Origin: an uncultured Candidatus Saccharibacteria bacterium
GTDB taxonomy: Bacteria > Patescibacteriota > Minisyncoccia > Phycocordibacterales > UBA12445
Assembly (NCBI GenBank): GCA_964649715.1
Contig: CAZYTH010000006.1
Span: forward strand, 6,341 to 70,340
Direction of reading: 5' to 3'
Length of the DNA stretch: 64,000 nucleotides
Part shown: positions 3,849 to 56,528 of the stretch, one piece after another
How positions within the stretch are numbered: the stretch's first letter is position 1
Layout of the letters: each line of letters starts with the position of its first letter
Translations under genes and position numbers: made by a program
Notes under the pieces: model-generated
What the model saw: only the letters and a program-made list of their open reading frames with translations
What the model was told of the DNA's origin: nothing
Database searches by the model: none

Positions 3849-4040
3849 TTATTGAGACATCGTGTCTGTTGTATAATTTTAAATTTACAATTTTGCAATT
3901 TTCAATCAATAGTTAATTTACAAGTAGCCAATTTTCAAACAATTTTTACGTAAGAAAATTAATTTTTTTGTAGATTATAAATTGAAACATTGAAAATTTA
4001 ATTAAAATTAGAAATTGATAATTTAAAATTTTTTATTGTA

Positions 4041-4817
4041 ATGTCCAAAATACAAAATACCCGCCCGCACCGAACAGAATATTCGGGCGAGGCAAAATAC
4101 AAAATAAGAGTTATATATGAAGACAAAGATATTTTGGTTATAGATAAGCCAAGCGGTTTGTCTGTTCACGGCGATGGCAAGAGCGATGTTTACACTCTCT
4201 CCGATTGGATATTGGAGAATTATCCAGGTATTAAAGATGTTGGAGAGCCGATGATATCATCAGAAGGAAAAAAGATTGTTCGACCAGGGATAGTTCATCG
4301 TTTAGATAAGGATACTAGTGGGGTTTTGATCGTGGCAAAAAAAGATGAATCTTTTAAGTTCCTGAAAAGGCAATTCAAAGAAAGAGAGATGGGAAAAATA
4401 TATTTAGCAATTGTTGAGGGTAGGTTCAAGGATGAGAGTGGCATTATTGATAAACCAATTGGTAGAAGTGAAAACGATTTTAGAGCAAAGACAACCGGGG
4501 CTTCGGCCAGAGGAGAAGTTAGAAGCGCTATTACTTATTATAAGGTTATTGAACAATGTAACGGTTATTCGTTTCTCGAAATAAGACCCAAGACAGGAAG
4601 GACACACCAGATAAGGGTTCACTTAAAATCTATAAGTAAGCCTATTGTTTGCGACCAAATATACGGTAAAAATAAAATTTGTCCTAAATGGTTGGGGCGC
4701 CTAGCTCTGCATGCGTTTTCTCTTGAAATAAGGGTGCCAGGAGGCGAGAGAAAGTTGTTTGTTTCGCCCCTGCCTGTGGATTTGAAAAGGGCTCTTGATA
4801 AAATAAGAAGTTTATGA
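4041..4817 (+). CDS. RluA-family 23S rRNA pseudouridine synthase (RluD-like)
   Basis: 'HRLDKDTSGVLIVAKK' catalytic-Asp motif, which is characteristic of the RluA family. 258 aa. Confidence 0.8.
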   Translation: MSKIQNTRPHRTEYSGEAKYKIRVIYEDKDILVIDKPSGLSVHGDGKSDVYTLSDWILENYPGIKDVGEPMISSEGKKIVRPGIVHRLDKDTSGVLIVAKKDESFKFLKRQFKEREMGKIYLAIVEGRFKDESGIIDKPIGRSENDFRAKTTGASARGEVRSAITYYKVIEQCNGYSFLEIRPKTGRTHQIRVHLKSISKPIVCDQIYGKNKICPKWLGRLALHAFSLEIRVPGGERKLFVSPLPVDLKRALDKIRSL

Positions 4818-5336: not shown

Positions 5337-5420
5337 GCGCAGATGGCGAAATTGGTAGACGCACTACCTTGAGGTGGTAGCGCCCGCAAGGGCATGGAGG
5401 TTCAAATCCTCTTCTGCGCA
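5337..5420 (+). tRNA. tRNA-Leu (anticodon GAG), with a long variable arm
   Basis: Cloverleaf can be read: acceptor GCGCAGA/TCTGCGC, anticodon stem CTACC/GGTAG with loop TTGAGGT, long variable arm, T-arm GGAGGTTCAAATCCTC. No encoded CCA. Confidence 0.8.
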
Positions 5421-5421
5421 C

Positions 5422-5466
5422 AAAACAACCACCCAAAAGCGAAAGCTTTTGGGTGGTTTTGTTTTA
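5422..5466 (+). terminator. Rho-independent terminator hairpin after tRNA-Leu
   Basis: Perfect inverted repeat AAAACAACCACCCAAAAGC gaa GCTTTTGGGTGGTTTTGTTTT. Confidence 0.6.
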
Positions 5467-5468
5467 CA

Positions 5469-5486
5469 CGCAGAAGAGGATTTGAA
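5469..5486 (-). repeat. Inverted partial copy of the tRNA-Leu 3' end (T-arm/acceptor)
   Basis: CGCAGAAGAGGATTTGAA is the exact reverse complement of tRNA-Leu positions 5401-5418. A further 'CCAAATCCTCTTGAG'-like fragment at about 5562 and a repeated 'AAAGCGAAAGCTTTT' lie nearby. Confidence 0.6.
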
Positions 5487-5785
5487 GCCCGATTGAGTAT
5501 TTTTTGTAGCCTGGAAAAGGCGTACAAAAAATCCAATCGGGGTACTGGTCCCGTAAGGACCAAATCCTCTTGAGTCTATAAAAGCGAAAGCTTTTTGTTT
5601 TTTTGCTTGTAGAATAGAGACCCAAAAGACGTATCTTGTATAAAGAAAGATAGGCTGGTTGGAGTACTTAAAATTTTCAATGAAGATTAGTGCGTGATCA
5701 AAACCCCTATATTGATAGACAAAAAAGTATATTTGTTCTAGCATTTATTCAAAAGGTACATTGAACACATAAGGAGGCTTTTATT

Positions 5786-11689: not shown

Positions 11690-12436
11690 ATGAATAAACT
11701 TATATTATTGAGACACGGAGAAAGCGAATGGAATAGAGAAAATATATTTACAGGTTGGACAGACGTAGATCTTTCTCCAAGAGGGGAAGAAGAAGCCAAG
11801 GAGGCGGGTCGTTTGCTTCTTGATGCTGGTATTTTTCCAAATGTTGCTTTCACCTCAGTATTACAAAGAGCGAATAGAACATTGGATATTTTATTGGATG
11901 AAATGAAAATAAAAGATATTCCTATTCATTTTTCTTGGCGCCTTAATGAAAGGCATTACGGAGCTCTTCAAGGTTTAAATAAGACAGAAACTGTAAAAAA
12001 ATTTGGAGAAGAACAGGTTAAAATTTGGAGAAGAAGTTATGAAACAAGACCGCCATCTCTTACAGCTGGAGAAGAGAGAGATTCCGTGAATGATCCTAAG
12101 TATGCTGGATTGAAAAGGGAGGAAATACCACTTTCTGAGTCTTTGGAAGACACCACAAAAAGAGTTATGCCTTATTGGGAGGAGAAAATTTTACCGGAGA
12201 TTAAAAGCGGTAAGAACGTTTTGATAGCGGGGCACGGTTCCGGGGTTAGAAGTATCGTTAAATATCTTGATAATTTATCCTCGGAAGATGTCGTGGGTCT
12301 TGATATCCCGACAGGAGTTCCGCTTGTGTATGAATTTGATGAAAATGGTAAAAAAATCACTCATTATTATTTGGGTAGAGAGGAAGATATTAAGAAAAAA
12401 ATAGAAGAAGTTAAGAATCAGATAAAAAACAAATAA
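11690..12436 (+). CDS. gpmA: 2,3-bisphosphoglycerate-dependent phosphoglycerate mutase
   Basis: 'LILLRHGESEWNRENIFTGWTDVDLSPRGEEEA' RHG catalytic motif, plus 'GHGSGVRSIVKYL' and a C-terminal Lys-rich tail. 248 aa. Confidence 0.85.
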   Translation: MNKLILLRHGESEWNRENIFTGWTDVDLSPRGEEEAKEAGRLLLDAGIFPNVAFTSVLQRANRTLDILLDEMKIKDIPIHFSWRLNERHYGALQGLNKTETVKKFGEEQVKIWRRSYETRPPSLTAGEERDSVNDPKYAGLKREEIPLSESLEDTTKRVMPYWEEKILPEIKSGKNVLIAGHGSGVRSIVKYLDNLSSEDVVGLDIPTGVPLVYEFDENGKKITHYYLGREEDIKKKIEEVKNQIKNK

Positions 12437-13824: not shown

Positions 13825-15999
13825 TTATTCAAAATGAGTTTCTGCGCTCCTTTCTTTTGTTATTTTTTTCAAAGTTGGATATTTCACCATCTCTGGGTCG
13901 AACTCCAGTATATTTTTTGCCTCATTTCTGGCTGCCTCAACCATTTTTATGTTTTTTATCGCTTCCATCCCAATATCTGAAATTCCCCATTGTTTTTTTC
14001 CGGAAAGTTCTCCAAAACCACGCAGTTGAAGGTCTAACTCAGCAAGTTCAAAGCCGTTTTTTGCAGTTTTTATCGCTTTTAGTCGATTGTGTGTTTTTTC
14101 GCTTTTTGATTCGCTAAAAATATAACAAAAAGCTTGATGGTTGCTCCTTATGACCCTTCCCCTTAACTGGTGAAGCTGAGAAAGACCAAACCTTTCTCCT
14201 CCTTCTATTATTATTACTGTGGCATTCGGAACATTTACGCCCACCTCTACGACAGAAGTCGCCGTAAGGATATTTATTTTTCCATCTGAAAATTTACCCA
14301 TTACATCATCCTTTTCTTTTGTGGTCATCTTGCTGTGAAGTATTCCAAATTCATATTCAGGAAATACATCTTTTTTTAATCTTTTGGCCTCTGCTTTAAC
14401 TGATTTTGCGTTAAGTGCGAGTTCTTTGTCGGGATCAGGCTCATCTATCCTTGGGCAGATTATATAGGCCTGCCTTCCGCTCCCCAATTCTTTTCTAATT
14501 TTTTCGTAAACTTCTTTTCTTCCGGCAGGGGCGACAATCTCTGTAATTATATTTTTTCTGCCGACGGGCATTTCGTCCAAAAGCGTTAGGTCTAAGTCTC
14601 CATAGATTGTGAGAGCCAGAGTTCTGGGAATCGGTGTCGCTGTCATTGAGAGAAGGTGTGGAACCTGTATTTTTTTTCCCTCTTCAAAATCGCTTGTCTT
14701 TCTAGCTATTTTAAGCCTCTGTGCCACTCCGAAGCGGTGCTGTTCATCTATTATGACGAGGCCCAAATGTCTAAAATTAACAGTTTTTTGTATTAGAGCG
14801 TGTGTTCCAATCAATATTGGTATTTCGCCATTCGCGACCCATTTTAAAAGCTGAGTTCTTGAAATAGTTGTCCACTTTTTAGGATCTGTCTTTGAGGGGA
14901 ATTTTTTACAACCGCTTCCTGTTATTAGCCCGACATTTATTCCTGTGTATTCAAAATATTTTATAAAAGATTCGAAGTGTTGTCCGGCAAGTATCTCAGT
15001 TGGCGCCATATAGGCAACTTGTAAATTGCCAAAATCTTTCCCATAAGGGCTTGTACTTATTACACTATAAGCTGCCGTTGCCGCGACAGCTGTCTTGCCT
15101 GAGCCGACATCACCTTCTAGGAGTCTCGTCATCGGTTTATCGGAGAGAAGATCTTTATTTATCTCATTCATCGATTTTTTTTGTGCGTTAGTCATCGGAA
15201 AACCAAACCTTTTCACAAAATCCGCGATGTCCTCTTTTTTCGTTGTTATCCTAAAAGAGGGGTTACTCTCATATTCCCTTTTTTCTTTTTGTCGAGAAAG
15301 TTGTATATAGAAGACTTCTTCAAAAGAAAATCTTTTTCTTGCAGATATGGCATCATTGTCTTTTTTTGGAGAGTGTATCCAGACAAGTGCAGTTGCAAGA
15401 GAAGGTAGGTGATATTTTTCGAGTATTTCTTTTGGTATCGGGTCCTCTAATCTTTCGTGAAGCTTATTTTTTAACAGTCGATCTATCGCGTGTCTTAGCC
15501 AAAGAGATGTTACGCCTCTGGTCTCGGGGTAAACGGGAGAAGATACCAGATTATCTTCGGAAAAAAGGCTTCCATGATGGGCCATTTCAAGAGTGTCGGT
15601 CTCTTCAAGCTCTGGGTTTACGATACTCCTTTGGCCCTTCTTTTCATTTATTTGTCCTTTTAGTTTAACAAAACCACCCTCAGGGACTTTTTTTGCCATA
15701 TATGGCTGATGAAACCATATTGCTTTTATTTTTCCTGTATCATCTTCAATTATCATTTCTCCCATAGGGACACCTGAGTGGAAGGATTTTAGGGTTTTTG
15801 AGGAGACAACCCTTCCGCACACTTCGGCAAATTCACCATTTTTTGTTTCTATAATATGTTTTAAGAGTGCCTTTTCTCCGTATCTTGAAGGCAAATAGAA
15901 CAAGAGGTCTTTTAGTGTTTTTATGCGAAGTTTTTTTAATCCTTCTTTTTGGTGAGGATTTAGGCGAAAGGTTGATTCTATATTATCGTTTGGATCCAT
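13825..15999 (-). CDS. recG: ATP-dependent DNA helicase RecG
   Basis: 724 aa. Walker A 'GDVGSGKT', 'IIDEQHRFGV' DEQH box and an N-terminal wedge/OB region. Length is typical. Confidence 0.9.
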   Translation of the reverse strand: MDPNDNIESTFRLNPHQKEGLKKLRIKTLKDLLFYLPSRYGEKALLKHIIETKNGEFAEVCGRVVSSKTLKSFHSGVPMGEMIIEDDTGKIKAIWFHQPYMAKKVPEGGFVKLKGQINEKKGQRSIVNPELEETDTLEMAHHGSLFSEDNLVSSPVYPETRGVTSLWLRHAIDRLLKNKLHERLEDPIPKEILEKYHLPSLATALVWIHSPKKDNDAISARKRFSFEEVFYIQLSRQKEKREYESNPSFRITTKKEDIADFVKRFGFPMTNAQKKSMNEINKDLLSDKPMTRLLEGDVGSGKTAVAATAAYSVISTSPYGKDFGNLQVAYMAPTEILAGQHFESFIKYFEYTGINVGLITGSGCKKFPSKTDPKKWTTISRTQLLKWVANGEIPILIGTHALIQKTVNFRHLGLVIIDEQHRFGVAQRLKIARKTSDFEEGKKIQVPHLLSMTATPIPRTLALTIYGDLDLTLLDEMPVGRKNIITEIVAPAGRKEVYEKIRKELGSGRQAYIICPRIDEPDPDKELALNAKSVKAEAKRLKKDVFPEYEFGILHSKMTTKEKDDVMGKFSDGKINILTATSVVEVGVNVPNATVIIIEGGERFGLSQLHQLRGRVIRSNHQAFCYIFSESKSEKTHNRLKAIKTAKNGFELAELDLQLRGFGELSGKKQWGISDIGMEAIKNIKMVEAARNEAKNILEFDPEMVKYPTLKKITKERSAETHFE

Positions 16000-16069
16000 A
16001 GGATATTCAGTATATTTTAAAGAAAGACTTAAATCAAAAGTTCGCCAATTGCTTTGGCGAACTTTTGAT

Positions 16070-17170
16070 TTATTTTTTTATCTTATCATATAGCTTTTTG
16101 ATTGTATTTATTTCGTTGCTATTTTTTATGTCCAGATAGGTCTGGAGATCGTTTTCTGAAAGTTGTTTTTTGAACTCTAAAAATTCTGGATCCGGTGGTG
16201 TTAATCTTGTATATAGTTTATACAAACTATTTTCTTCTGGAAGTTCGCTTTCCTTGAGTTTTCTTTTTGTTTCTTCTTTGTGTCGCATCGCCTTCCTGTC
16301 GGCTGTCCCGATCATATTGCCTCTTATTTTTCTTACTCTTGTGAAAAAGTCATCGTTTTCATTAAATTCAGCGTCTTGAAGGGCGTCCCATATTGTTGCC
16401 ATACCGACACTCGTGCCAAGCTTGAATTTGAAATCTTTTGGTATGTCGAGTTCTTTGTCTTTTAACCTTTCTTGGACGAGCCCGCTTTCAAAATCTATAA
16501 GCCCTGTTGCTTCTTTGTTGCTTTTAACTTCCTCAAAAAAACGTCTTTCTACCTCATTTCTAATCTCATTGAGATTTTTTTCATCTGAAGATAGAAGTGC
16601 TCCAAATTCATCTCCACCTTGGGTAAAGGGTATCGAATCAACCCCATTTTCTTTTAACCATTTTATTGTTTCACCATTCTGTAAAATTTCAGCAAGAATA
16701 CCAAGTCCTCTATCTCCGCTTGTATGACCGCCGAGATCGTTGAGAGCTTTTAGCCCGTTTAGGTCAAAGTTAATAATGGCAATTTTTTCCAGATCTGGTT
16801 TAGATAATTCTTTTTTTTCAAAAGCACTGCCCACTTTTTTTGCTAGTTCAAATTCTATATATTTTCGGTTGAAAAGGGGTTCTTTGAAGCATGGTCTTCT
16901 GTCTTGGTATGAGAGTTTTATAAGATTTACATCGTTTTTTACAAATTCAACAATTTCTTCTGGGGAGAATCCTTTTTCTTTCAAGAGAAGAACCCTGTTT
17001 TTCTCTTCAGTTCTAAGATTTATATCAGAACCTTCAGGCTCAGGAATAAGACTTAAAAGTTTTTCTATTTTGCTTTCGGCTTCTTCTTTTTTTCGTTTCT
17101 CTGTCTCTTCTCTTGAGGACGCCGTCTTTATTGCCTTATTTAAAATGTCGTTATCGTTATTATTTATCAT
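16070..17170 (-). CDS. GGDEF-domain diguanylate cyclase
   Basis: 'INFDLNGLKALNDLGGHTSGDRGLGILAEIL' and an exact 'FTQGGDEFGALL' GGDEF active-site motif. N-terminal charged, coiled region. Confidence 0.75.
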   Translation of the reverse strand: MINNNDNDILNKAIKTASSREETEKRKKEEAESKIEKLLSLIPEPEGSDINLRTEEKNRVLLLKEKGFSPEEIVEFVKNDVNLIKLSYQDRRPCFKEPLFNRKYIEFELAKKVGSAFEKKELSKPDLEKIAIINFDLNGLKALNDLGGHTSGDRGLGILAEILQNGETIKWLKENGVDSIPFTQGGDEFGALLSSDEKNLNEIRNEVERRFFEEVKSNKEATGLIDFESGLVQERLKDKELDIPKDFKFKLGTSVGMATIWDALQDAEFNENDDFFTRVRKIRGNMIGTADRKAMRHKEETKRKLKESELPEENSLYKLYTRLTPPDPEFLEFKKQLSENDLQTYLDIKNSNEINTIKKLYDKIKK

Positions 17171-17705
17171 GATTGTTATATTAATAAAAAAACAACTTAA
17201 TTGAAAGTTTTTTAAAATTATAGTGTTAGGGAATTTTTTAATTAAAAATCTCCTTATCTTCTTTTGTTTTTAAGAGAGACTGTGGCATTTGTTAAAAGCA
17301 ACTGTGCTATCTCCAAATATTGAACTGAAAAGACAACCCAAATCTAATTGTTCGATGAATTTGTGTCCTTGTCAGAAAACACTACCAATCGTTTAGAATA
17401 GCTTTTTTGGTCTTTGTTCCAAATACCTTCGCAAGTAATAAGATTTAGATGTGATTTGCCGCAAATACAAAAGTGTTTCCACCTCCAAAAATTACAGAAA
17501 AAAAGATTGATAAAATTACTAAAAATTTATTAACTGTTTTCATCTATTTTTTTATATTAACTATTGAAAAAACTCCTTACAGTTTACTCTTCTATTGTTG
17601 GAATGCATAATTGTCGTTTATTTTAGAGGATAAATATAAAATATGGGAAAAAATCGTGGAGAGTATAAATTTTTTATTTTCTTACTATCGTGCTAAAATA
17701 CAATA

Positions 17706-18065
17706 ATGAAAAAGAAAATAAATAAAAAAATAAAGCCAGTCGCCAATAGCGCGAATAAAAAAGCAATCAAAAAAATAAAATCGGTTGCCAAACTAACGGT
17801 AGAAAAAACAAAAGTATTCATGGAAAATACTGGTAAAAAGGTTGGCAAAGAAGCGGGAAAAATGGCAAAGGCACTTCAAAAAAGATGGGATAAAGCTGAA
17901 CCAGGAAGAGAGAAATATAAAAAAGAGGTAAAGATCGCAGCCAAAAAAGCTGGTGCAAGAGGCATGGAGTTACTAAAAAGTGGACTTAAAAATAGCATGA
18001 AAATAGGTGGCGATATCGTTGACGTTATCAAAAAAGATGTCAAAGAAATGAGTAACGAAAAATAG
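17706..18065 (+). CDS. Lysine-rich small hypothetical protein
   Basis: 119 aa, about 30% Lys. Followed by a terminator hairpin. Confidence 0.4.
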   Translation: MKKKINKKIKPVANSANKKAIKKIKSVAKLTVEKTKVFMENTGKKVGKEAGKMAKALQKRWDKAEPGREKYKKEVKIAAKKAGARGMELLKSGLKNSMKIGGDIVDVIKKDVKEMSNEK

Positions 18066-18107
18066 AGGAAATTAAATACCATTCATAATCTGATATAATA
18101 TAAGATT

Positions 18108-18136
18108 AAATCCGCTCTATAATGAGCGGATTTTTT
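18108..18136 (+). terminator. Rho-independent terminator
   Basis: AAATCCGCTCTATAATGAGCGGATTTTTTG. Confidence 0.6.
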
Positions 18137-18313
18137 GTTGTAAATAAGGCTGTAATGGTTTAATACTCATTGTTTTCTTATGAAAGAATTTCTATTTTTA
18201 GGTCATTTTTTAAGATAATAATAAAGTCCTCAGATTGTGGATAACTTAGCTTTGTTTTTCGGCTTCCTTTCGGTTATAATCAAATTGTAGCGTAAATAGA
18301 CTTTAATATATAG

Positions 18314-19891
18314 ATGTCAAATCTCACAAAAAAACAAAAACAAGTCTTTGACTTTGTAAATAATTATATTTCCGAAAACGGCATATCTCCGACCATTGAG
18401 GAGATACGAAAAAAACTAAAACTCAAAGCCGTTTCCACAATTCATGAACATATCAATTCCCTCAAAGCAAAGGGGTATCTTTCAAAGTCTGAAAATTCGG
18501 CTAGAAGTCTATTACTGAGAAAAGAAATCAAATCTATCATAGAAATTCCGATTTTAGGTAGAATCGCTGCGGGATATCCCATAGAAGCAATAGAAAATAT
18601 AGAGGATACTATCTCCATAGTTAATCCGAGCATTAAAACATCAGAAGGATATTATGCCTTGCGTGTAGTAGGAGAAAGTATGATTGATGAAGGAATTTTT
18701 GACGGAGATATTGTTGTAATAAAAAAGCAGTCTGTTGCAGAGAATGGGCAGACGGTTGTTGCTATTATTGATGACAACGAAGCAACACTCAAAAAATTAT
18801 ACCGAGAGAAAACACGGTACCGACTTGAACCAAGAAATCAAAATCTACTTCCTCTTTATCGCAAAGAGGTTGAGGTAAGAGGTGTTGTTGTTCAAATTAT
18901 AAGCAATATAGCAGACAGGCCAGAAAAAATATTCTCAAAAAAGACAAAACACGGATTTAAGACAATTGATCTTTTTGCTGGGGTTGGTGGAATACGATTA
19001 GGTTTTGAAAATGCCGGATTTAAAACAGTTTTCGCAAATGATTTTGAGCCTCAATGTAAAGATACCTATGATCTAAACTTTAGAGATTCGAAATTGGTTG
19101 TTGAGGATATTAGAAAGATTGGGATTGATGATTTACCTAAATTTGATTTTCTTCTGGGCGGTTTCCCTTGCCAGGCTTTTTCTATCGCAGGATATAGACA
19201 AGGATTTGATGACGAGAAAGGTAGAGGAAATTTATTTTTTGATATTGCAAGGATTCTTGACGCACGAAAGCCCGAAGGCTTTCTGCTTGAGAATGTAAAA
19301 AACTTAAAAAGTCACGATGGGGGTAAGACTTTCAGAATTATTCAAGAGACACTAGAAAATCTTGGCTATTATTTGAAAACAAAAGTTTTAAACAGTATGG
19401 AATACGGTAATATTCCACAAAACAGAGAACGAGTTTATGTGGTTGGTTTTAGAAATAAAGACTACTCCGATAAGTTTGAGTTTCCTAACCCAGTAAAATT
19501 AACTGTGAAAATTACTGACTTACTAGAGAAAAATGTACCCGATAAATACTACTACAACGGCAAGCCGTTGTTTGAAAAACTGAAAGATTTTATAAAAGAA
19601 GAAGGAAAAGTTTATCAATGGCGTAGGCAATATGTCCGAGAAAATAAGAGTGGTGTTTGTCCAACATTAACGGCAAATATGGGGACAGGTGGACACAATG
19701 TGCCAATTATTAAAGACAAGAAAGGTATCAGGAAATTAACTCCGCTAGAATGTGCTCGTATTCAAGGTTTTCCTACTGATTACAAAATACCAAAACTAGC
19801 CGATTCTGCTTTATATAAACAATTTGGAAATTCTGTCAGTGTTCCAGTTATTGAGGCTGTGGGAAGACAAATGATGAAAGCGATGGAATAA
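18314..19891 (+). CDS. Fusion protein: full-length LexA repressor (wHTH plus S24 peptidase) fused to a DNA (cytosine-5)-methyltransferase
   Basis: The N-terminal ~195 aa align throughout to E. coli LexA: 'KKQKQVFDFV..ISENGISPTIEEI' HTH, 'IPILGRIAAGYPIEA' Ala-Gly cleavage site, 'LRVVGESMIDEGIFDGD' Ser nucleophile, 'ATLKKL' Lys. The C-terminal ~320 aa carry C5-MTase motifs: I 'DLFAGVGGIRLGF', IV 'GGFPCQAFSIAGYRQG', VI 'ENVKNL', X 'QFGNSVSVPVIEAV'. Confidence 0.85.
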   Translation: MSNLTKKQKQVFDFVNNYISENGISPTIEEIRKKLKLKAVSTIHEHINSLKAKGYLSKSENSARSLLLRKEIKSIIEIPILGRIAAGYPIEAIENIEDTISIVNPSIKTSEGYYALRVVGESMIDEGIFDGDIVVIKKQSVAENGQTVVAIIDDNEATLKKLYREKTRYRLEPRNQNLLPLYRKEVEVRGVVVQIISNIADRPEKIFSKKTKHGFKTIDLFAGVGGIRLGFENAGFKTVFANDFEPQCKDTYDLNFRDSKLVVEDIRKIGIDDLPKFDFLLGGFPCQAFSIAGYRQGFDDEKGRGNLFFDIARILDARKPEGFLLENVKNLKSHDGGKTFRIIQETLENLGYYLKTKVLNSMEYGNIPQNRERVYVVGFRNKDYSDKFEFPNPVKLTVKITDLLEKNVPDKYYYNGKPLFEKLKDFIKEEGKVYQWRRQYVRENKSGVCPTLTANMGTGGHNVPIIKDKKGIRKLTPLECARIQGFPTDYKIPKLADSALYKQFGNSVSVPVIEAVGRQMMKAME

Positions 19892-19895
19892 ATAA

Positions 19896-20759
19896 TTATT
19901 CCATAAATTCAACAGCAATATTTTTGAGATCTTCAATGCGTGTCTTGAGATATTCTACACCAACATTTTCTTCTCTTAAATTAACATGTTTTGCAATAAA
20001 TGAAGTTGTTATCTTAAGCGCCGAGTTATTATCAATCCATTTTTTAGGGTGTAGTCGTAATTCAAGTCTTTTCTTGGCTTTATAGATTTTTGTATTTCCA
20101 TATTCATTATCAATAAAATCATCTAGAAAAACAGATTTATTAGTAGTTCTTTTTTTGTTAACCCTAACATTATTTAAGTTTTTTAAATTAAGCACTGCAC
20201 CTGTGAAATAGAAATCGGCACCCTCTATTTGAGTACCGGGTCTCAGTATAAAAAAGTAATATATCTTTTTTATCTTATAGGTCTTGTTTAATGATTCATA
20301 TTTTTCACTATAAAGTTTTATCCAACTATTCTTTATCTCTACATATTTTCCGTTTGCAAACATTGCATCCAAATGAATGCCTGGTCCTTCAAATTTTTGA
20401 CCCAGAGAAGCCTCTCCACTATCACTATTTGATACCTGTCCAGAGTTATTTAATTTAATATTGAGCATTTTGATATCAGCTCCCCATTTATCACGTTCAT
20501 TATATATATCAATTGGATAAGAACCAGCACCAACAGGCTTAACATCAAGTGATTGAGTAAACCACTGCTCTATATGCTCTTTTGGAATTTGAATAGGCAA
20601 TTGTCTTTGTCCAATTTTAGGCTCAGGTTGAGCAAATAATGACTTAATAATAAAATACTTAATTATATTTTTTGATTTATCATCTAGAAAATCCAATAAC
20701 TCCTTGCTGGACAAAGGATTAATTACATATTTATTATATTTTGGAGATACTTTTTTCAT
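19896..20759 (-). CDS. Putative restriction endonuclease (PD-(D/E)xK candidate) converging on the methyltransferase
   Basis: 287 aa, tail-to-tail with a 4-bp gap to the MTase. 'GIHLDAMFANGKYVEIKNSW' fits D-x10-E-x-K. No other recognisable family. Confidence 0.4.
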   Translation of the reverse strand: MKKVSPKYNKYVINPLSSKELLDFLDDKSKNIIKYFIIKSLFAQPEPKIGQRQLPIQIPKEHIEQWFTQSLDVKPVGAGSYPIDIYNERDKWGADIKMLNIKLNNSGQVSNSDSGEASLGQKFEGPGIHLDAMFANGKYVEIKNSWIKLYSEKYESLNKTYKIKKIYYFFILRPGTQIEGADFYFTGAVLNLKNLNNVRVNKKRTTNKSVFLDDFIDNEYGNTKIYKAKKRLELRLHPKKWIDNNSALKITTSFIAKHVNLREENVGVEYLKTRIEDLKNIAVEFME

Positions 20760-31244: not shown

Positions 31245-31273
31245 CTTGCGCTGTCGGGTATTTGGAACATGAA

Positions 31274-31358
31274 CGAAACCGGGTTTATGGTTGTGAAATA
31301 AGGATAATCAAAGCCGATAGCTTGTTATCCCTCACTCCTCTAAACCCGGTTTCTTGGT
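31274..31358 (+). repeat. Structured ~85-nt repeat element, copy 1 (terminal inverted repeat GAAACCGGGTTT...AAACCCGGTTTC)
   Basis: About 80% identical to copy 2 at 33048-33133. The ends are reverse complements and could form a 12-bp closing stem. Confidence 0.55.
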
Positions 31359-31364
31359 GTAATT

Positions 31365-31600
31365 GTAATTTCTCTTCGTCATTGCGATCCGCCTCTGGCG
31401 GAGAAGCCCGCCCGAACGACCTCTGTTCTGGTCGGGCGAGGCAATCCAGATTTAGTTTTATATTTCTGTCTGGATCGCCACGGTCGCTCTGCTCCCTCGC
31501 GATGACGATTACCATTAAAGTCTTTACATTTCCCCATCTTTTTTTGTTTTTGTCATTCCCGCGAAGGCGGGAATCCATGTAGTGGAATCTATGTATCTTG
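31365..31600. other. GC-rich, hairpin-dense non-coding island (candidate structured RNA or foreign DNA remnant)
   Basis: Local GC is far above the genome background. Hairpins include TTCCCGC-GAAG-GCGGGAA, ATCCAGA...TCTGGAT, and long-range pairing of TCGTCATTGCGA with TCGCGATGACGA. Both ORFs predicted here are low-complexity Arg-rich artefacts. Confidence 0.35.
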
Positions 31601-31748
31601 CCACCATTCATTTCGGACTGGTTGGAAATTTGGATTTGGAAATTACTTTCTCCTTTATCCACAGCCTCTGTTTTGCTTTTAATGTCCTCCGAGAGTATAA
31701 TTTATTATGCAAGGGAATGTTTCCTCGCTTTTGATTTATTTCGGTCGA

Positions 31749-31763
31749 TGGCGACAACATTGC
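31749..31763 (+). promoter_or_regulatory. Candidate sigma-54-type promoter upstream of pilA1
   Basis: TGGCGACAACATTGC against the consensus TGGCAC-N5-TTGC, with the GG and GC dinucleotides correctly spaced. About 100 bp upstream of the pilA1 ATG. A 7-bp-stem hairpin ATCCGCAaacTGCGGAT (31838-31854) sits just before the start. Confidence 0.25.
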
Positions 31764-31863
31764 CTGCGAGAAGTTTGTATAAAAACAGAACTTCCTTTTA
31801 CCACTTAATTTTTTAAAAGAGTATTAAAAATTAATTTATCCGCAAACTGCGGATTCACAATAA

Positions 31864-33703: not shown

Positions 33704-33820
33704 TTAAGAGTGTGGCGTTGATTGAATTTAAGAAAAAAACCCCGCAGGGCATCTCGTCCCGCGGGTTTTTCCTTTGTCCTCTCCTCTTAAAACACTTGGA
33801 CTCCCGGAGTCCAAGTGGCC

Positions 33821-34540
33821 TTATATCTCCTCGTTTATTTCTTCCTTTCTGGCAATCATATCCGGCAAATTCCCTTCTGCAAAGTCTTTGTATGCTTTCT
33901 TGTCCTTAAATTGTCCCAAAATAATATCTTTTTCACACTGAATAAGCGGTTCACCGTTTAACTCTTCGGAATACTGTTTCCAGCTAGACCTCACAAACTT
34001 GGACTCCGGGAGTCCAAGTGTTATCTTGTGTACAAGAAAATTTAGATTTATGTAAGAGCTTAAATGAAGCAGATAGGCATCATTTTTTATGTGTTTTGCC
34101 TTGAATCTACCGCCAAATAAGGCACCTTTTCTTCCATATTTTTCGTTAAAATATTTTGAATAGCCCAAAGACATTCTGTGCATAAATTTTTGCACTCCTG
34201 TCTCTTCTTTTTGCACAAGCAGAAAATGAAAATGATTTGGGTTTATGCAGTAGGCGACAATGCCGACCAGTGGTTTTTCCTCATTTTCTTTTTTATTTTT
34301 GTTAAAACTTTTTTGAAGTATACTTCCGATTAAATTAACATTATTAAATTCAAGTATTCCTTGCATGAATCTTCCAAGGTCTTTTTCGTCTTCGAATATT
34401 CGTCTTTTATCAACACCACGATTAAAAACGTGATAATATTCTCCATTTGCGAATTCTGTATTTCTTATTGGCATGTTTGGGATACTACCACTTGGACTCC
34501 GGGTTTCCAAGTACAAAAAACTTGGAAACCCGGAGTCCAA
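33821..34540 (-). CDS. IS200/IS605 family Y1 (HUH) transposase, possibly a REP-associated tyrosine transposase
   Basis: 'YHVFNRGVDKRRIF', 'VAYCINPNHFHFLLV' (HUH = HFH) and 'NEKYGRKGALFGGRFKAKHI' match the TnpA_IS200 fold order. 239 aa, with a C-terminal extension relative to canonical ~140-aa TnpA. Confidence 0.7.
   Translation of the reverse strand: MDSGFPSFLYLETRSPSGSIPNMPIRNTEFANGEYYHVFNRGVDKRRIFEDEKDLGRFMQGILEFNNVNLIGSILQKSFNKNKKENEEKPLVGIVAYCINPNHFHFLLVQKEETGVQKFMHRMSLGYSKYFNEKYGRKGALFGGRFKAKHIKNDAYLLHLSSYINLNFLVHKITLGLPESKFVRSSWKQYSEELNGEPLIQCEKDIILGQFKDKKAYKDFAEGNLPDMIARKEEINEEI
33997..34019. repeat. Palindromic element copy (ACTTGGACTCC-G-GGAGTCCAAGT) inside the transposase gene
   Basis: Perfect 11+1+11 palindrome, translated as '...LGLPESKFV...' within the TnpA reading frame. 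Confidence 0.7.
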
Positions 34541-34628
34541 GTGAAGTCAATTTTTATACAGTAGAGGGGGTGTAGGGGGTGGTGAATGTCCACAGTTTTA
34601 TTTTTATTTTTTGTGCTATAATAATCCT

Positions 34629-38387: not shown

Positions 38388-40433
<2,046 letters not shown>

Positions 40434-40847: not shown

Positions 40848-42305
40848 GTGGATATCTCAAAACTTACAATCAAACAGGCAGTGAATGGTATTAAATCCCG
40901 GGAATTTTCTGCTACGGAAGTCACCGAATCATATTTGAAAAACATAGAAGAAAAAGACAGGGAGATTGGAGCGTATTTGGAAGTTTTTGAAGATGCAATA
41001 AGTGAGGCAAAAAAAATAGACGATAAGGTCAAAAAAGGTGAAGAATCAGGTATTTTGGCTGGTGTTCCTGTTTGTATAAAAGACAACATAATGATAAAAG
41101 GGAAACACGCATCTTCTGGATCTAAAATACTCGAAGGATATATTTCTCCTTTTGATTCAACTGTTGCCTCAAGGTTAAAAAATGAGGGTGCCGTTTTTTT
41201 GGGTCGGGCAAATATGGATGAATTTGCGATGGGTAGTTCTACTGAAAATTCCGCCTTCAAAATAACAAAAAATCCCCACGATACATCCCGTGTGCCTGGT
41301 GGTTCTTCTGGTGGTTCAGCCTCATCTGTGGCAGGGGATATGTCCCTTGTTTCTTTTGGTTCTGATACTGGTGGTTCGGTTAGACAGCCGGCATCTTTTT
41401 GCGGAATCGTGGGTCTTAAGCCTACTTATGGCGCAGTATCTAGACACGGACTTATGGCGATGGGTAGCTCTCTTGATCAAATCGGACCACTTGCGAAAAC
41501 TGTTGAAGATATTGAGATACTTTTTAATGTTATAAAAGGTGTAGATCCTCTAGATTCTACAAGTCGAGACTTGGACTCCCGGAGTCCAAGTACAAATTCA
41601 ATTGGACTCCGGGAGTCCAAGTCGGCTAATAAGCGAATTGGAGTACCGAGAAATTATATTGGAGAGGGTCTTACTGCTGAAGTGTTGAAGAATTTTGAGG
41701 ACACTTTGTCTTATCTAAGGGAAAATGGATATGAAATCGTAGATGTAGAACTTCCTAATCTCAAATATTCTCTTCCTGTTTATTACGTGGTTATGCCCGC
41801 AGAAGTATCTGCAAATCTTGCTCGCTTTGACGGAGTCAGATATGGCCTCCACAAAGACGGAGAAAATTTGCTTTCTGATTATTACAATACAAGGGGGTCT
41901 GGATTTGGTCCCGAACCAAGAAGAAGAATAATTTTGGGGACATATGTCCTTTCATCTGGTTATTATGATGCTTATTATAAAAAGGCCGAGGATGTAAGGT
42001 CTCTTATTCGCGATGATTTTAATTTTGTTTTTGAAAAAGAGGGATTTTCTGCAATCATAACACCCACTACGCCATCTCCAGCATTCAAGATAGGGGAGAA
42101 ATCAAAAGATCCTCTAACGATGTATTTGGAAGACATTTTTACTGTGCCTGCAAGTATTGTAGGGGCCCCCGCTATATCTGTTCCATCTGGGTATGCGGAA
42201 ATAGAAGGTAAAAAACTCCCACTAGGGGTTCAAATTACAGCCCCACACTTTGGCGAGGATATTTTGTTTTCTATAGGAAAAGATATAGAAAAAATGCTAA
42301 AATAA
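40848..42305 (+). CDS. gatA: Glutamyl-tRNA(Gln)/aspartyl-tRNA(Asn) amidotransferase subunit A, with an in-frame tandem palindromic-element insertion
   Basis: Amidase signature 'GGSSGGSASSVAGD', Ser-cisSer-Lys triad context. The 57-nt insertion encodes 'DLDSRSPSTNSIGLRESKS' between 'DPLDSTS' and 'NKRIGVP'. Confidence 0.9.
   Translation: MDISKLTIKQAVNGIKSREFSATEVTESYLKNIEEKDREIGAYLEVFEDAISEAKKIDDKVKKGEESGILAGVPVCIKDNIMIKGKHASSGSKILEGYISPFDSTVASRLKNEGAVFLGRANMDEFAMGSSTENSAFKITKNPHDTSRVPGGSSGGSASSVAGDMSLVSFGSDTGGSVRQPASFCGIVGLKPTYGAVSRHGLMAMGSSLDQIGPLAKTVEDIEILFNVIKGVDPLDSTSRDLDSRSPSTNSIGLRESKSANKRIGVPRNYIGEGLTAEVLKNFEDTLSYLRENGYEIVDVELPNLKYSLPVYYVVMPAEVSANLARFDGVRYGLHKDGENLLSDYYNTRGSGFGPEPRRRIILGTYVLSSGYYDAYYKKAEDVRSLIRDDFNFVFEKEGFSAIITPTTPSPAFKIGEKSKDPLTMYLEDIFTVPASIVGAPAISVPSGYAEIEGKKLPLGVQITAPHFGEDILFSIGKDIEKMLK
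41569..41622. repeat. Two tandem palindromic element copies (dimer with ACAAATTCA spacer) inserted in-frame in gatA
   Basis: ACTTGGACTCCCGGAGTCCAAGT acaaattca ATTGGACTCCGGGAGTCCAAGT. Same dimer architecture as the hairpin at 34489-34543, whose spacer is ACAAAAAA. Confidence 0.75.
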
Positions 42306-42308
42306 GTT

Positions 42309-42911
42309 ATGGTCTTTTTTGATAATATTCCATGGAATAATCTTGAGTACTGGTTCGCTCTTATTTATAAAATATTTGTAGATTTACCCAGTTATTTAAT
42401 CTACGCTTTTTATTTTTGGGTAAGTGCATTTGAAAGCTTTTGGTTGCAGGTTTTTTTGTGGGTTACCACCACGATTTTTAGTGGAATAACTTTTTATTCT
42501 TTGTATAAAATATGGGAGATAAATAATTTTGATTGGGAAAAATACAAAGCAATTTTTTTTATTGAAAACAAGGATGAAGCCGAAAAGATAATGGTCGATA
42601 AAAAATGGGTAGATATTTTAGGTCATCTAGAAAGTGACCGTCCTGCAAGTTGGACATTGGCTATAATCGAGAGCGACAAGATATTGGACGAGCTTCTTAA
42701 GGAAAAAGGTTTTGATGGTGCAAACGTGGGAGAGAGACTAAAGAGCGAAAAGGCTGGGAAGCTAAAAAATCTTCAAGATGCATGGGAGGCTCACAAAATA
42801 AGGAATAAGATTGCTCACGAGAGCGGATATATTCTAGAGAAGAGGGACGCCAGAAAGGCAATAGCACATTATGAGTCTGTGTTTCGCGAATTAGGTTTTT
42901 TAAATTCCTAG
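42309..42911 (+). CDS. Hypothetical membrane protein
   Basis: 200 aa. Two N-terminal TM helices, then a soluble domain. Followed by a 14-bp-stem hairpin. Confidence 0.4.
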   Translation: MVFFDNIPWNNLEYWFALIYKIFVDLPSYLIYAFYFWVSAFESFWLQVFLWVTTTIFSGITFYSLYKIWEINNFDWEKYKAIFFIENKDEAEKIMVDKKWVDILGHLESDRPASWTLAIIESDKILDELLKEKGFDGANVGERLKSEKAGKLKNLQDAWEAHKIRNKIAHESGYILEKRDARKAIAHYESVFRELGFLNS

Positions 42912-42917
42912 AAGCAG

Positions 42918-42962
42918 AACTTCTACGATTTTTTCAAACGCAGAAGTTCTGCTTCTAGGAAA
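42918..42962 (+). terminator. Large hairpin terminator
   Basis: GAAGCAGAACTTCT acgattttttcaaacgc AGAAGTTCTGCTTC, a perfect 14-bp stem. Confidence 0.55.
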
Positions 42963-42989
42963 TATAAATATTAATTAAAAAATAAATTT

Positions 42990-56125: not shown

Positions 56126-56528
56126 AGTACAATACCTCCTTTTTTATCATCTAATTACAATCGTAACTTATTTTTCCTAGAAGCTCAACGCCTACGAAAT
56201 GCGGAGTTATACTTCTAGGAAAATTAAAAATATGAGATAATAATCTTATATGAAATATTTTAATAAAGATTTTTGGAAATTTTCCGCGCAATTTGTGATA
56301 ATAATTGCGATATCTTTATTTCTTATGTCTATGATAAGTGGGTATATTGGGAGCGGAGGAGGGGAGGCAAGTTTGACCAGATAATTTTTTCTCAGTATCT
56401 CATCGCAAGGAAAAAGCTCCTTTTGGAGTACTCTTTTTATTCGCAGGGAGAAATTATTTTCCCCAACTCCCTTCTGTGTGAATCCTCTTCGCAAAAGAAA
56501 AACACCCGAAGGTGCTTTTCTTAATTGT

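Follow-up and report, generated by a model that had tools for sequence, protein, structure and literature searches.

What kind of element is the small Y1 transposase gene, enclosed by palindromes, that lies between a pilin gene and pilD in an uncultured Candidatus Saccharibacteria bacterium, and how is it related to the palindromes found elsewhere on the same DNA? The stretch considered here, hereafter the window, comprises 64,000 nucleotides (nt) of contig CAZYTH010000006.1 (assembly GCA_964649715.1, positions 6,341 to 70,340). We propose that the gene and the palindromes form a REPtron-like unit, in which a class-2 Y1 HUH gene, resembling those of the REP-associated tyrosine transposases (RAYT, or TnpA_REP; REP, repetitive extragenic palindrome) and probably present in single copy, is accompanied by its cognate short palindromes. 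We regard this explanation as likely. A first-pass annotation, made from the letters of the window alone, had left the choice between a RAYT-like gene and an IS200-like insertion sequence (IS); the evidence favours the former, because of the Y-x3-N tyrosine motif, the length of 217 amino acids (aa), the structural match to 4ER8, the lack of a near-identical second copy in ~1 Mb of loci, and a site and orientation shared with diverged relatives.

The first-pass annotation described a Y1 transposase of the IS200/RAYT kind, with hairpins on either side, located between the pilins and pilD; Pfam, fold and layout bear this description out. The Pfam search that it proposed gives a significant match to Y1_Tnp (PF01797; 37 bits against a cutoff of 23, E 4.3e-9). 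The HUH motif, correctly read as HFH, occupies residues 81-83, and H81, H83, Y141 and N145 are invariant in an alignment of 116 sequences; all 13 residues invariant in the family are kept in the window protein. The tyrosine motif, Y141-I-N-L-N145, is of the Y-x3-N and not of the Y-x3-Q type, and the proline of the 'NP' that follows Y-x3-N is not conserved in the Patescibacteria family. Judged by its residues, the Y1 enzyme looks catalytically intact. The AlphaFold2 model (mean predicted local distance difference test score 87.4) has a strand at 82-88 and a helix at 132-143, and its top Foldseek match in the PDB is 4ER8, the E. coli TnpA_REP with a bound REP hairpin (E 7.8e-6), followed by the IS608, ISDra2 and IS200 transposases; the PDB matches include 2A6O, 2VJV and 2XM3. 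The protein ends in a conserved helical tail of ~70 aa with an 'SSW' motif. This tail, the length and the Y-x3-N motif place it with class 2 rather than with IS200 (Quentin et al. 2018, PMC6006769), and, set against the published motif table only, the motifs NH[YF]H, FQG and Y[IV]NLN most resemble those of subclass 2.1.

The open reading frame (ORF) of 239 aa given in the first-pass annotation is present on the minus strand from TTG 34540; the likely product is nevertheless the one of 217 aa from ATG 34474, since the TTG falls within the 5' hairpin, the only database protein with 100% identity (P0001) has 217 aa, and in the alignment all homologues begin at the Met equivalent to this ATG. Both flanking palindromes and the further copy within the gene were rightly recognised, although the 3' palindrome had been put at 33783-33807, 10 nt too low, and the 5' hairpin has arms of 24 nt instead of a 23-bp stem (see the table). 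The hairpin unit of the window has the general form ACTTGGACTCC-S-GGAGTCCAAGT (S = C/G). The arms of the 5' hairpin are 100% complementary, and each half is a degenerate copy of the palindrome; the doublet is chimeric, each unit combining one ACTCC-type with one AAACC-type arm, and a perfect structure results only when it pairs over its full length as a 24-bp hairpin. The palindrome pattern is far above chance in the window: the 12-nt half-site, with at most one mismatch, occurs 12 times against 0.13 expected (0/100 shuffles), and the generic CTTGG-N-CCAAG 6 times against 0.29.

Features of the Y1 unit and positions of its palindromes in the window
Feature	Position	Strand	Remarks
Y1 HUH (RAYT/TnpA_REP-like) gene	33821..34474	-	217 aa from ATG; HFH81-83, Y141, N145
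3'-flanking palindrome CACTTGGACTCC-C-GGAGTCCAAGTG, 12-1-12	33793..33817	.	begins 3 nt past the stop codon of the Y1 gene
In-frame palindrome within the Y1 gene (site 2)	33996..34020	.	TLGLPESK, T152-K159; loop after the catalytic helix
Spacer from hairpin to ATG	34475..34488	-	carries -10-like TAGTAT (34482-34487), 7 nt before ATG
5'-flanking inverted doublet	34489..34543	.	two degenerate palindrome units; 24-nt arms, 7-nt loop
Dispersed palindrome unit in ligA (38400..40433)	40181..40205	.	in frame, HhH-BRCT linker, peptide STWTPGVQ
Dispersed inverted doublet in gatA (40848..42305)	41568..41623	.	units 41568-41592 and 41599-41623; 22-nt arms, 100% complementary

The same arrangement is shared by ~80 Patescibacteria homologues at 45-57% identity. 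The first-pass annotation had considered such a gene notable in a genome of this group; the family is in fact common there, with 862 significant homologues in a word-indexed search and 185 clusters (50% identity, E<=1e-30) in an exhaustive one. The named sources of the homologues are Patescibacteria/Paceibacteria, and the proteins are annotated as 'transposase' or 'RayT'. Our family sample consisted of 80 metagenomic loci (designated by L numbers) and several long contigs, and the layout was counted in the 75 loci with at least 100 nt on each side. A hairpin stands just before the start codon in 67 of these 75 loci and another follows the gene in 56, starting at a median of 4 nt past the stop. 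Two further positions lie in frame inside the gene, site 1 before beta-2 (43 loci) and site 2 after the catalytic helix (54 loci). At least three of the four positions are filled in 55 loci, and at least one in 74. The outer stem is usually ACTTGG/CCAAGT, with the variants ACTTAG/CTAAGT and GTGGAC/GTCCAC; the inner 4-5 bp differ from lineage to lineage, 70 different left arms of 5 nt being counted, and mostly agree among the copies of one locus. Many copies have extended stems of their own, with arms of 17-24 bp, for example in L026, L049, L067 and L091, and a check of hairpin orientation found loop asymmetry with no consistent pattern across sites. The two in-gene sites map to low-confidence surface loops of the AlphaFold2 model (residues 57-69 and ~149-160). 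In an alignment of 73 unselected homologues, including those that have no hairpin, covariation at site 2 is 0.370 against 0.178 in shuffled alignments (0/500) and 0.07-0.13 in slid controls, and 78.7% of the cells pair, as compared with 64.6% in the shuffles. The recurrence and covariation at site 2, together with the loop location, identify the in-gene copy as a conserved trait of the family. The pairs L003/L004, L005/L006 and L007/L008 had been considered as strain pairs; they are identical DNA and are uninformative on mobility.

The position of the upstream hairpin suggests a further role. When the 5' regions of 82 loci are aligned on the ATG, a TAnnnT sequence (mostly TATAAT or TAAAAT) is found 3-16 nt before the ATG in 72 of them, most often at 6 nt (41 loci). 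The hairpin itself provides, through its ...CCAAGTG end, a TG at the extended -10 position in 56 loci, and its left arm contains a -35-like TTGGNN or TTAGNN in 53, with a spacer of 17 nt in 40. A -10 follows the hairpin in 57/79 upstream copies, in contrast to 6/107 in-gene and 2/62 downstream copies. The window shows the arrangement TTGGAA (34510-34505), 17 nt, TAGTAT (34487-34482), CCCAAAC, ATG. It can therefore be proposed that the upstream hairpin forms the promoter of the Y1 gene, a proposition that draws on conservation across the family because the window's own match was missed by a generic scan. The short distance from the -10 to the ATG implies a leaderless mRNA.

The history of the site is informative as to the nature of the unit. 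The first-pass annotation interpreted the gene as an insertion splitting the pilA-pilD region and recommended a comparison with related genomes. Relatives were found through LigA and have the common order pilins-pilD-...-ligA-gatC-gatA. The Y1 gene occupies the pilin|pilD spacer, on the minus strand, in L091 and in L093, a Nomurabacteria genome (LigA 73% identical to that of the window in both cases). It is absent from this spacer in L089 (LigA 77%), in L092 (71%), the sister of L091, and in L090 (73%), where a solo hairpin is left; in L094 the contig breaks at the spacer. The solo palindrome of L090, TTTGGAAACGTCGTTTCCAAA, is of the L091 type and lies 15 nt from the conserved TCCACAG pilD promoter region, which argues for a loss of the gene in this genome. 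The empty sites of L089 and L092 contain no gene remnant detectable by blastn, tblastx or tblastn, and no exact junction is definable. The identities between the Y1 proteins (window-L091 54%, window-L093 49%, L091-L093 56%) rank as those of LigA (73/73/80% in the same order), and each of the three orthologous cassettes has an inner stem of its own (GGACTCC, TTTGGAAACC and GGAGGTT). The shared site and strand, the identity ranks, the solo hairpin, the stem differences and a decayed palindrome in the ligA gene of L091 (described below) all fit an old, vertically inherited resident, with hairpins that change in concert, which is occasionally lost, as in L089, L090 and L092; they do not fit a recent insertion. 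No near-identical second copy of the gene is present in ~1 Mb of loci, and the 64-kb window has one. Five loci (L053, L058, L072, L074, L087) have a diverged Y1 paralogue, 31-43% identical to the query and 0.3-6 kb from the first gene. Some dispersed hairpins have an inner stem unlike that of the local gene (L012:5467, L069:13858, L079:3650), which, with the paralogues, suggests several gene/hairpin pairs per genome.

The cassette itself is placed cleanly between two host signals. On one side, just before the 3' palindrome, stands the intrinsic terminator of the last pilin, CCCCGCAGGG...CCCGCGGGTTTTT (33733-33772); on the other, just past the 5' hairpin, a conserved GTCCACAG box and a TGCTATAAT promoter for pilD (34556-34628). 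No tnpB is seen with the gene, its neighbours being a pilin and pilD. In L090 (3899-4245), the called PilD ORF has 368 aa, ~100 aa more than its orthologues, the call being extended upstream over a ~350-nt spacer with hairpin remnants (3925-3958 and 4172-4192); the true start is probably the Met of MDTILF... near 4245. This false extension and the TTG start of the window illustrate that the hairpins can mislead gene callers.

The first-pass annotation also surmised that the gene is the source of palindromes dispersed in the window, and their recurrence in ligA and gatA makes this a likely view. They are not terminators unique to the locus, the outcome that would have told against it, as they occur within these two genes and travel with the family across the ~80 loci. 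All three other units of the window lie in genes, one in ligA and two in gatA, 6-7 kb from the Y1 gene. GatA is 9-10 aa longer than in three syntenic relatives exactly at the doublet, which is situated in a variable loop. The linker of LigA varies and exceeds that of the closest relative by only ~3 aa, so that no clean net insertion is apparent. Comparison of LigA and GatA with solved structures places the hairpins in variable regions, and an insertion is not demonstrable by this means. The unit is stop-free in all six frames, three of which are in use in the window: TWTPGVQ in LigA, LDSRSPS and IGLRESKS (both in frame) in GatA, and LGLPESK in the enzyme. At the codon of the perfect LigA unit of the window, L091 has a decayed palindrome (ligA 11765-11791, CCACTTGGGCTTCGGGCCATCAAGTAG, peptide STWASGHQV), with an inner stem unlike that of L091's own RAYT hairpins; an old orthologous insertion and a hot spot common to both genomes are the two explanations. 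When TTGGACTCCSGGAGTCCAA was scanned for in 185,579 species genomes, the source genome not being among them, only two unrelated single matches appeared, in one Actinomycetota and one Verrucomicrobia genome. In-frame REPs inside tnpA_REP genes of subclass 2.4 have already been described (PMC6006769), as have REPs in unrelated genes, notably replication and repair genes (PMC3733652). L093 also has two identical, inverted, extended cognate hairpins of 35 nt, AAAACCACTTGGAGGTT-S-AACCTCCAAGTGGTTTT (14641-14675 and 19973-20007), which bracket a 5.3-kb gene of 1687 aa (14886..19949); in the window and in L089-L092, the interval from the 200-aa ORF to the SIMPL gene lacks it. The two hairpins could serve as bidirectional terminators or mark the ends of a cargo insertion that they bracket.

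By analogy with the TnpA_REP of E. coli, S. maltophilia and Marinomonas and with the TnpA of IS608 and ISDra2 (PMC8266576), we hypothesise that the protein would bind the palindrome folded as a hairpin in single-stranded DNA, cut beside it through a 5'-phosphotyrosine link and rejoin the strands. Such cutting and rejoining could copy hairpin units to nearby single-stranded sites. The action of the enzyme, combined with template switching at the hairpins, may keep the copies alike; that template switching would help their perfection is suggested by the copy-specific extended stems. Bound at the promoter hairpin, the enzyme would probably repress, and so throttle, its own transcription. Copies landing in tolerant protein loops would survive in a gene-dense genome, a possibility consistent with a unit that is open in all six frames.

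Several observations weigh against a REPtron-like unit. The best NCBIfam match of the protein is REP_Tyr_transpos (NF047646), yet with 27.8 bits for a cutoff of 80, and the homology from which binding, cleavage and copying are deduced amounts to ~12% identity in the structural alignment. The near-invariant Q of FQG is G in the window protein (FGG) and S in its closest relatives, in a region whose counterpart contacts DNA in E. coli TnpA_REP. The 5' GT[AG]G foot is absent; the feet read C[AC]AC...GT[GT]G or vary from copy to copy, and the GTAG that follows the upstream hairpin of the window is part of the -10 region and not a feature of the family. The hairpins are almost perfectly symmetric, which leaves the strand discrimination of known TnpA_REP with no obvious basis here. 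Strictly identical 5-nt inner arms are found in only 33/72 multi-hairpin loci, and two hairpin types occur side by side in some loci, L005 among them. The promoter of the window is weak (8 of 12, threshold 9), and the generic scan made no call. Copies outside the gene are few, with 3 units in 63 kb of the window and ~20 exact dispersed copies in 727 kb of flanks of the other loci, ~40% of them in ORFs; neither the window nor these flanks show signs of proliferation in the manner of REPINs (inverted REP doublets). Three formal marks of a RAYT are accordingly missing, namely the GTAG foot, the high copy number and a score above the NCBIfam cutoff; the unit is otherwise like known REPtrons.

The unit could instead be an autonomous insertion sequence of the IS200/IS605 type, whose flanking hairpins would be its left and right ends and whose ~750-bp cassette would move as single-stranded DNA. 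Its compact hairpin-ORF-hairpin organisation, in which the left end contains the promoter, a trait of many ISs, its presence or absence at one site among relatives and the significant fold matches to the IS608 and ISDra2 TnpA would agree with this proposal, as would the 5.3-kb gene of L093, missing from relatives and set between two inverted cognate hairpins. We nevertheless consider it unlikely. IS200 TnpA has a Y-x3-Q motif and about 150 aa, as opposed to Y-x3-N and 217 aa with a conserved tail; the loci contain diverged paralogues only and no near-identical second copy; tnpB is absent; and the family gene lies within long contigs (up to 429 kb) and not at contig breaks. Both ends are one symmetric palindrome and do not differ as left from right. 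A site and orientation common to the window, L091 and L093, a divergence that tracks the host and the solo hairpin of L090 point to inheritance and loss. It can also be envisaged that the hairpins are mainly regulatory DNA of the host or of the gene (promoter, insulator or terminator), that template switching keeps them palindromic, and that the Y1 protein has another role on single-stranded DNA. The upstream hairpin does belong to a conserved promoter architecture, and the stem extensions of L026, L049, L067 and L091 are the expected product of correction or extension by template switching. In addition, the extended copies of L093, with A-run and T-run flanks, bracket their gene like bidirectional terminators, and Y1 proteins of subclass 2.1, similar in motifs to the Patescibacteria family, are reported without REPs (PMC6006769). 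However, a promoter role cannot account for copies in ORFs or right after a stop, only 8/58 downstream copies have a T-rich tail, and -10 boxes are missing beside the in-gene and downstream copies. Template switching at a single hairpin cannot explain an inner stem shared by copies up to 7 kb apart in other genes, and a hairpin accompanies the gene at all but one of the 75 loci. This alternative seems improbable to us.

A role at the RNA level, in which the palindromes would be mRNA stem-loops governing the stability or translation of the transposase, ligA and gatA transcripts, has some appeal insofar as transcription of the gene would include the in-gene and flanking copies, covariation supports pairing, and REPs elsewhere act as RNA elements (PMC3733652). 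The mismatches of imperfect hairpins speak differently. On the sense strand there are 39 G.T and 46 A.C (p=0.52), and 15 and 29 in the in-gene copies; this absence of a G.U-compatible bias on the mRNA strand indicates that the constraint, or the generating process, acts on DNA and not on the transcript. Moreover, a leaderless start would leave the upstream hairpin outside the transcript, and an Rfam search gave no family match, only sub-threshold look-alikes of microRNA hairpins. Given the symmetric mismatch spectrum, we reject an RNA-level function, which we hold to be highly improbable. A bolder variant of the REPtron-like unit may also be considered, in which the enzyme would continually rewrite a fixed set of hairpins, namely the promoter hairpin, the two in-frame sites of its own gene and the sites in essential genes, so that a new inner stem would be adopted by all copies in concert. 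The hairpin would in that case act as a module, open in six frames and capable of promoter function, which edits protein loops and could bracket, perhaps even move, cargo genes such as that of L093. The chimeric arms of the 5' doublet and the current and decayed LigA sites of the window and L091 would be snapshots of this process. We regard this variant as rather doubtful.

Returning to the REPtron-like unit as the preferred explanation, its place among known systems can be outlined. Work on REPtrons reportedly includes that of Nunvar (2010), Bertels and Rainey (2011) and Ton-Hoang (2012). The REPtrons of E. coli (yafM), Pseudomonas and Stenotrophomonas (Corneloup 2021, PMC8266576) resemble the unit in their Y1 HUH enzyme with a Y-x3-N type motif and the 4ER8 fold, in a low-copy gene with its own short palindromes on both sides and an inverted, REPIN-like doublet, and in a hairpin that co-varies with the gene lineage, with seemingly vertical inheritance and losses. 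They differ in having a GT[AG]G foot, where in the window family REP and inverted REP are nearly one sequence, and in proteins of about 150-165 aa, as compared with 217 aa and a conserved helical tail; the window protein falls below the NCBIfam RAYT cutoff, and its family has a very low copy number outside the gene, the dispersed copies of the window being all intragenic. RAYT groups 2 and 3, with high-copy and mostly extragenic repeats, do not match; groups 1 and 4 of Bertels are likewise low-copy. Subclass 2.4 (Bertels group 4; Cyanobacteria, Bacteroidetes; PMC6006769) shares in-frame REPs in peripheral loops of tnpA_REP, 'double-foot' symmetric REPs and a low copy number. It differs in the in-gene positions, which in the window family are before the HuH (~57-69) and after the Y helix (~150-160), in the REP feet (GT[AG]G...C[TC]AC) and in the motifs (WQ and YIxNNP, against FQG, here FGG, and Y[IV]NLN). 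Subclass 2.1 (Bertels group 1, TIRYTs; Di Nocera 2013, PMC3733652; PMC6006769) is the closest in motifs (NH[YF]H, FQ, Y[IV]xLN, an SS-motif tail), with a length of about 220-240 aa and a low copy number; however, no REP-like hairpins are reported for it, some members have terminal inverted repeats, and the tail domains are helix-turn-helix-like, whereas palindromic hairpins are nearly universal in the window family. With IS200, IS608 and ISDra2 of the IS200/IS605 group, the unit has in common the catalytic fold, the end hairpins of a ~0.7-kb unit and, presumably, single-stranded DNA substrates. None of their other features is seen here: the Y-x3-Q enzyme of ~150 aa, the many near-identical copies, the frequent tnpB, and the distinct imperfect end hairpins with guide and cleavage tetranucleotides.

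A parallel is also found in intragenic palindromic repeats. The Rickettsia palindromic elements (Ogata 2000) measure about 100-150 bp and are not known to have a cognate transposase; the units of the window have 23-25 bp, stand beside a cognate Y1 gene and are open in six frames. Like the Rickettsia elements and intragenic REPs (PMC3733652), they are short in-frame palindromes of housekeeping proteins, including those of replication and repair (here LigA), placed in tolerant loops or linkers. We found no published account of elements like the present unit in Patescibacteria. For the four-position layout, the promoter within a hairpin with a leaderless start, and the readable concerted change of stem, no published description was found for this family, and each of the three is partly precedented elsewhere.

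RAYT and REP are the best-known example of co-evolution between a domesticated transposase and short repeats, and nearly all work on them concerns Proteobacteria and Cyanobacteria. The Patescibacteria family is useful in this respect, since it offers three to five hairpins in 750 bp, a legible change of stem and a hairpin within the gene's own promoter; it would be a simple system for testing the joint change of specificity of a Y1 enzyme and its hairpin, as well as the restraint of the enzyme. In these gene-dense genomes, annotation and structure modelling should allow for short peptides inserted in frame into essential proteins, as in LigA, GatA and the enzyme itself.

Other features of the window and its relatives are recorded here in their own right. 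A second, unrelated family of long hairpins, TTCCTAGAAGCAGAAC...GTTCTGCTTCTAGGAA (33-nt arms, 85% complementary), occurs at two intergenic positions of the window (42898-42968 and 56168-56227), and a relative of it fills the otherwise 'empty' pilin|pilD spacer of L089 (4020-4070); no gene was found associated with this family. Between the T2SS-F gene and the first pilin, a gap of ~600 nt (31245-31863) contains only short overlapping ORFs on both strands, and similar gaps of about 370-590 nt are present at this position in L089, L091, L092 and L093. Finally, a tRNA-Leu(GAG) gene at 5337-5421 is followed by a terminator-like hairpin and by an inverted partial copy of the tRNA 3' end (5459-5493; 35 nt, 83% complementary to 5394-5428), which could be a relic of integration at the tRNA.

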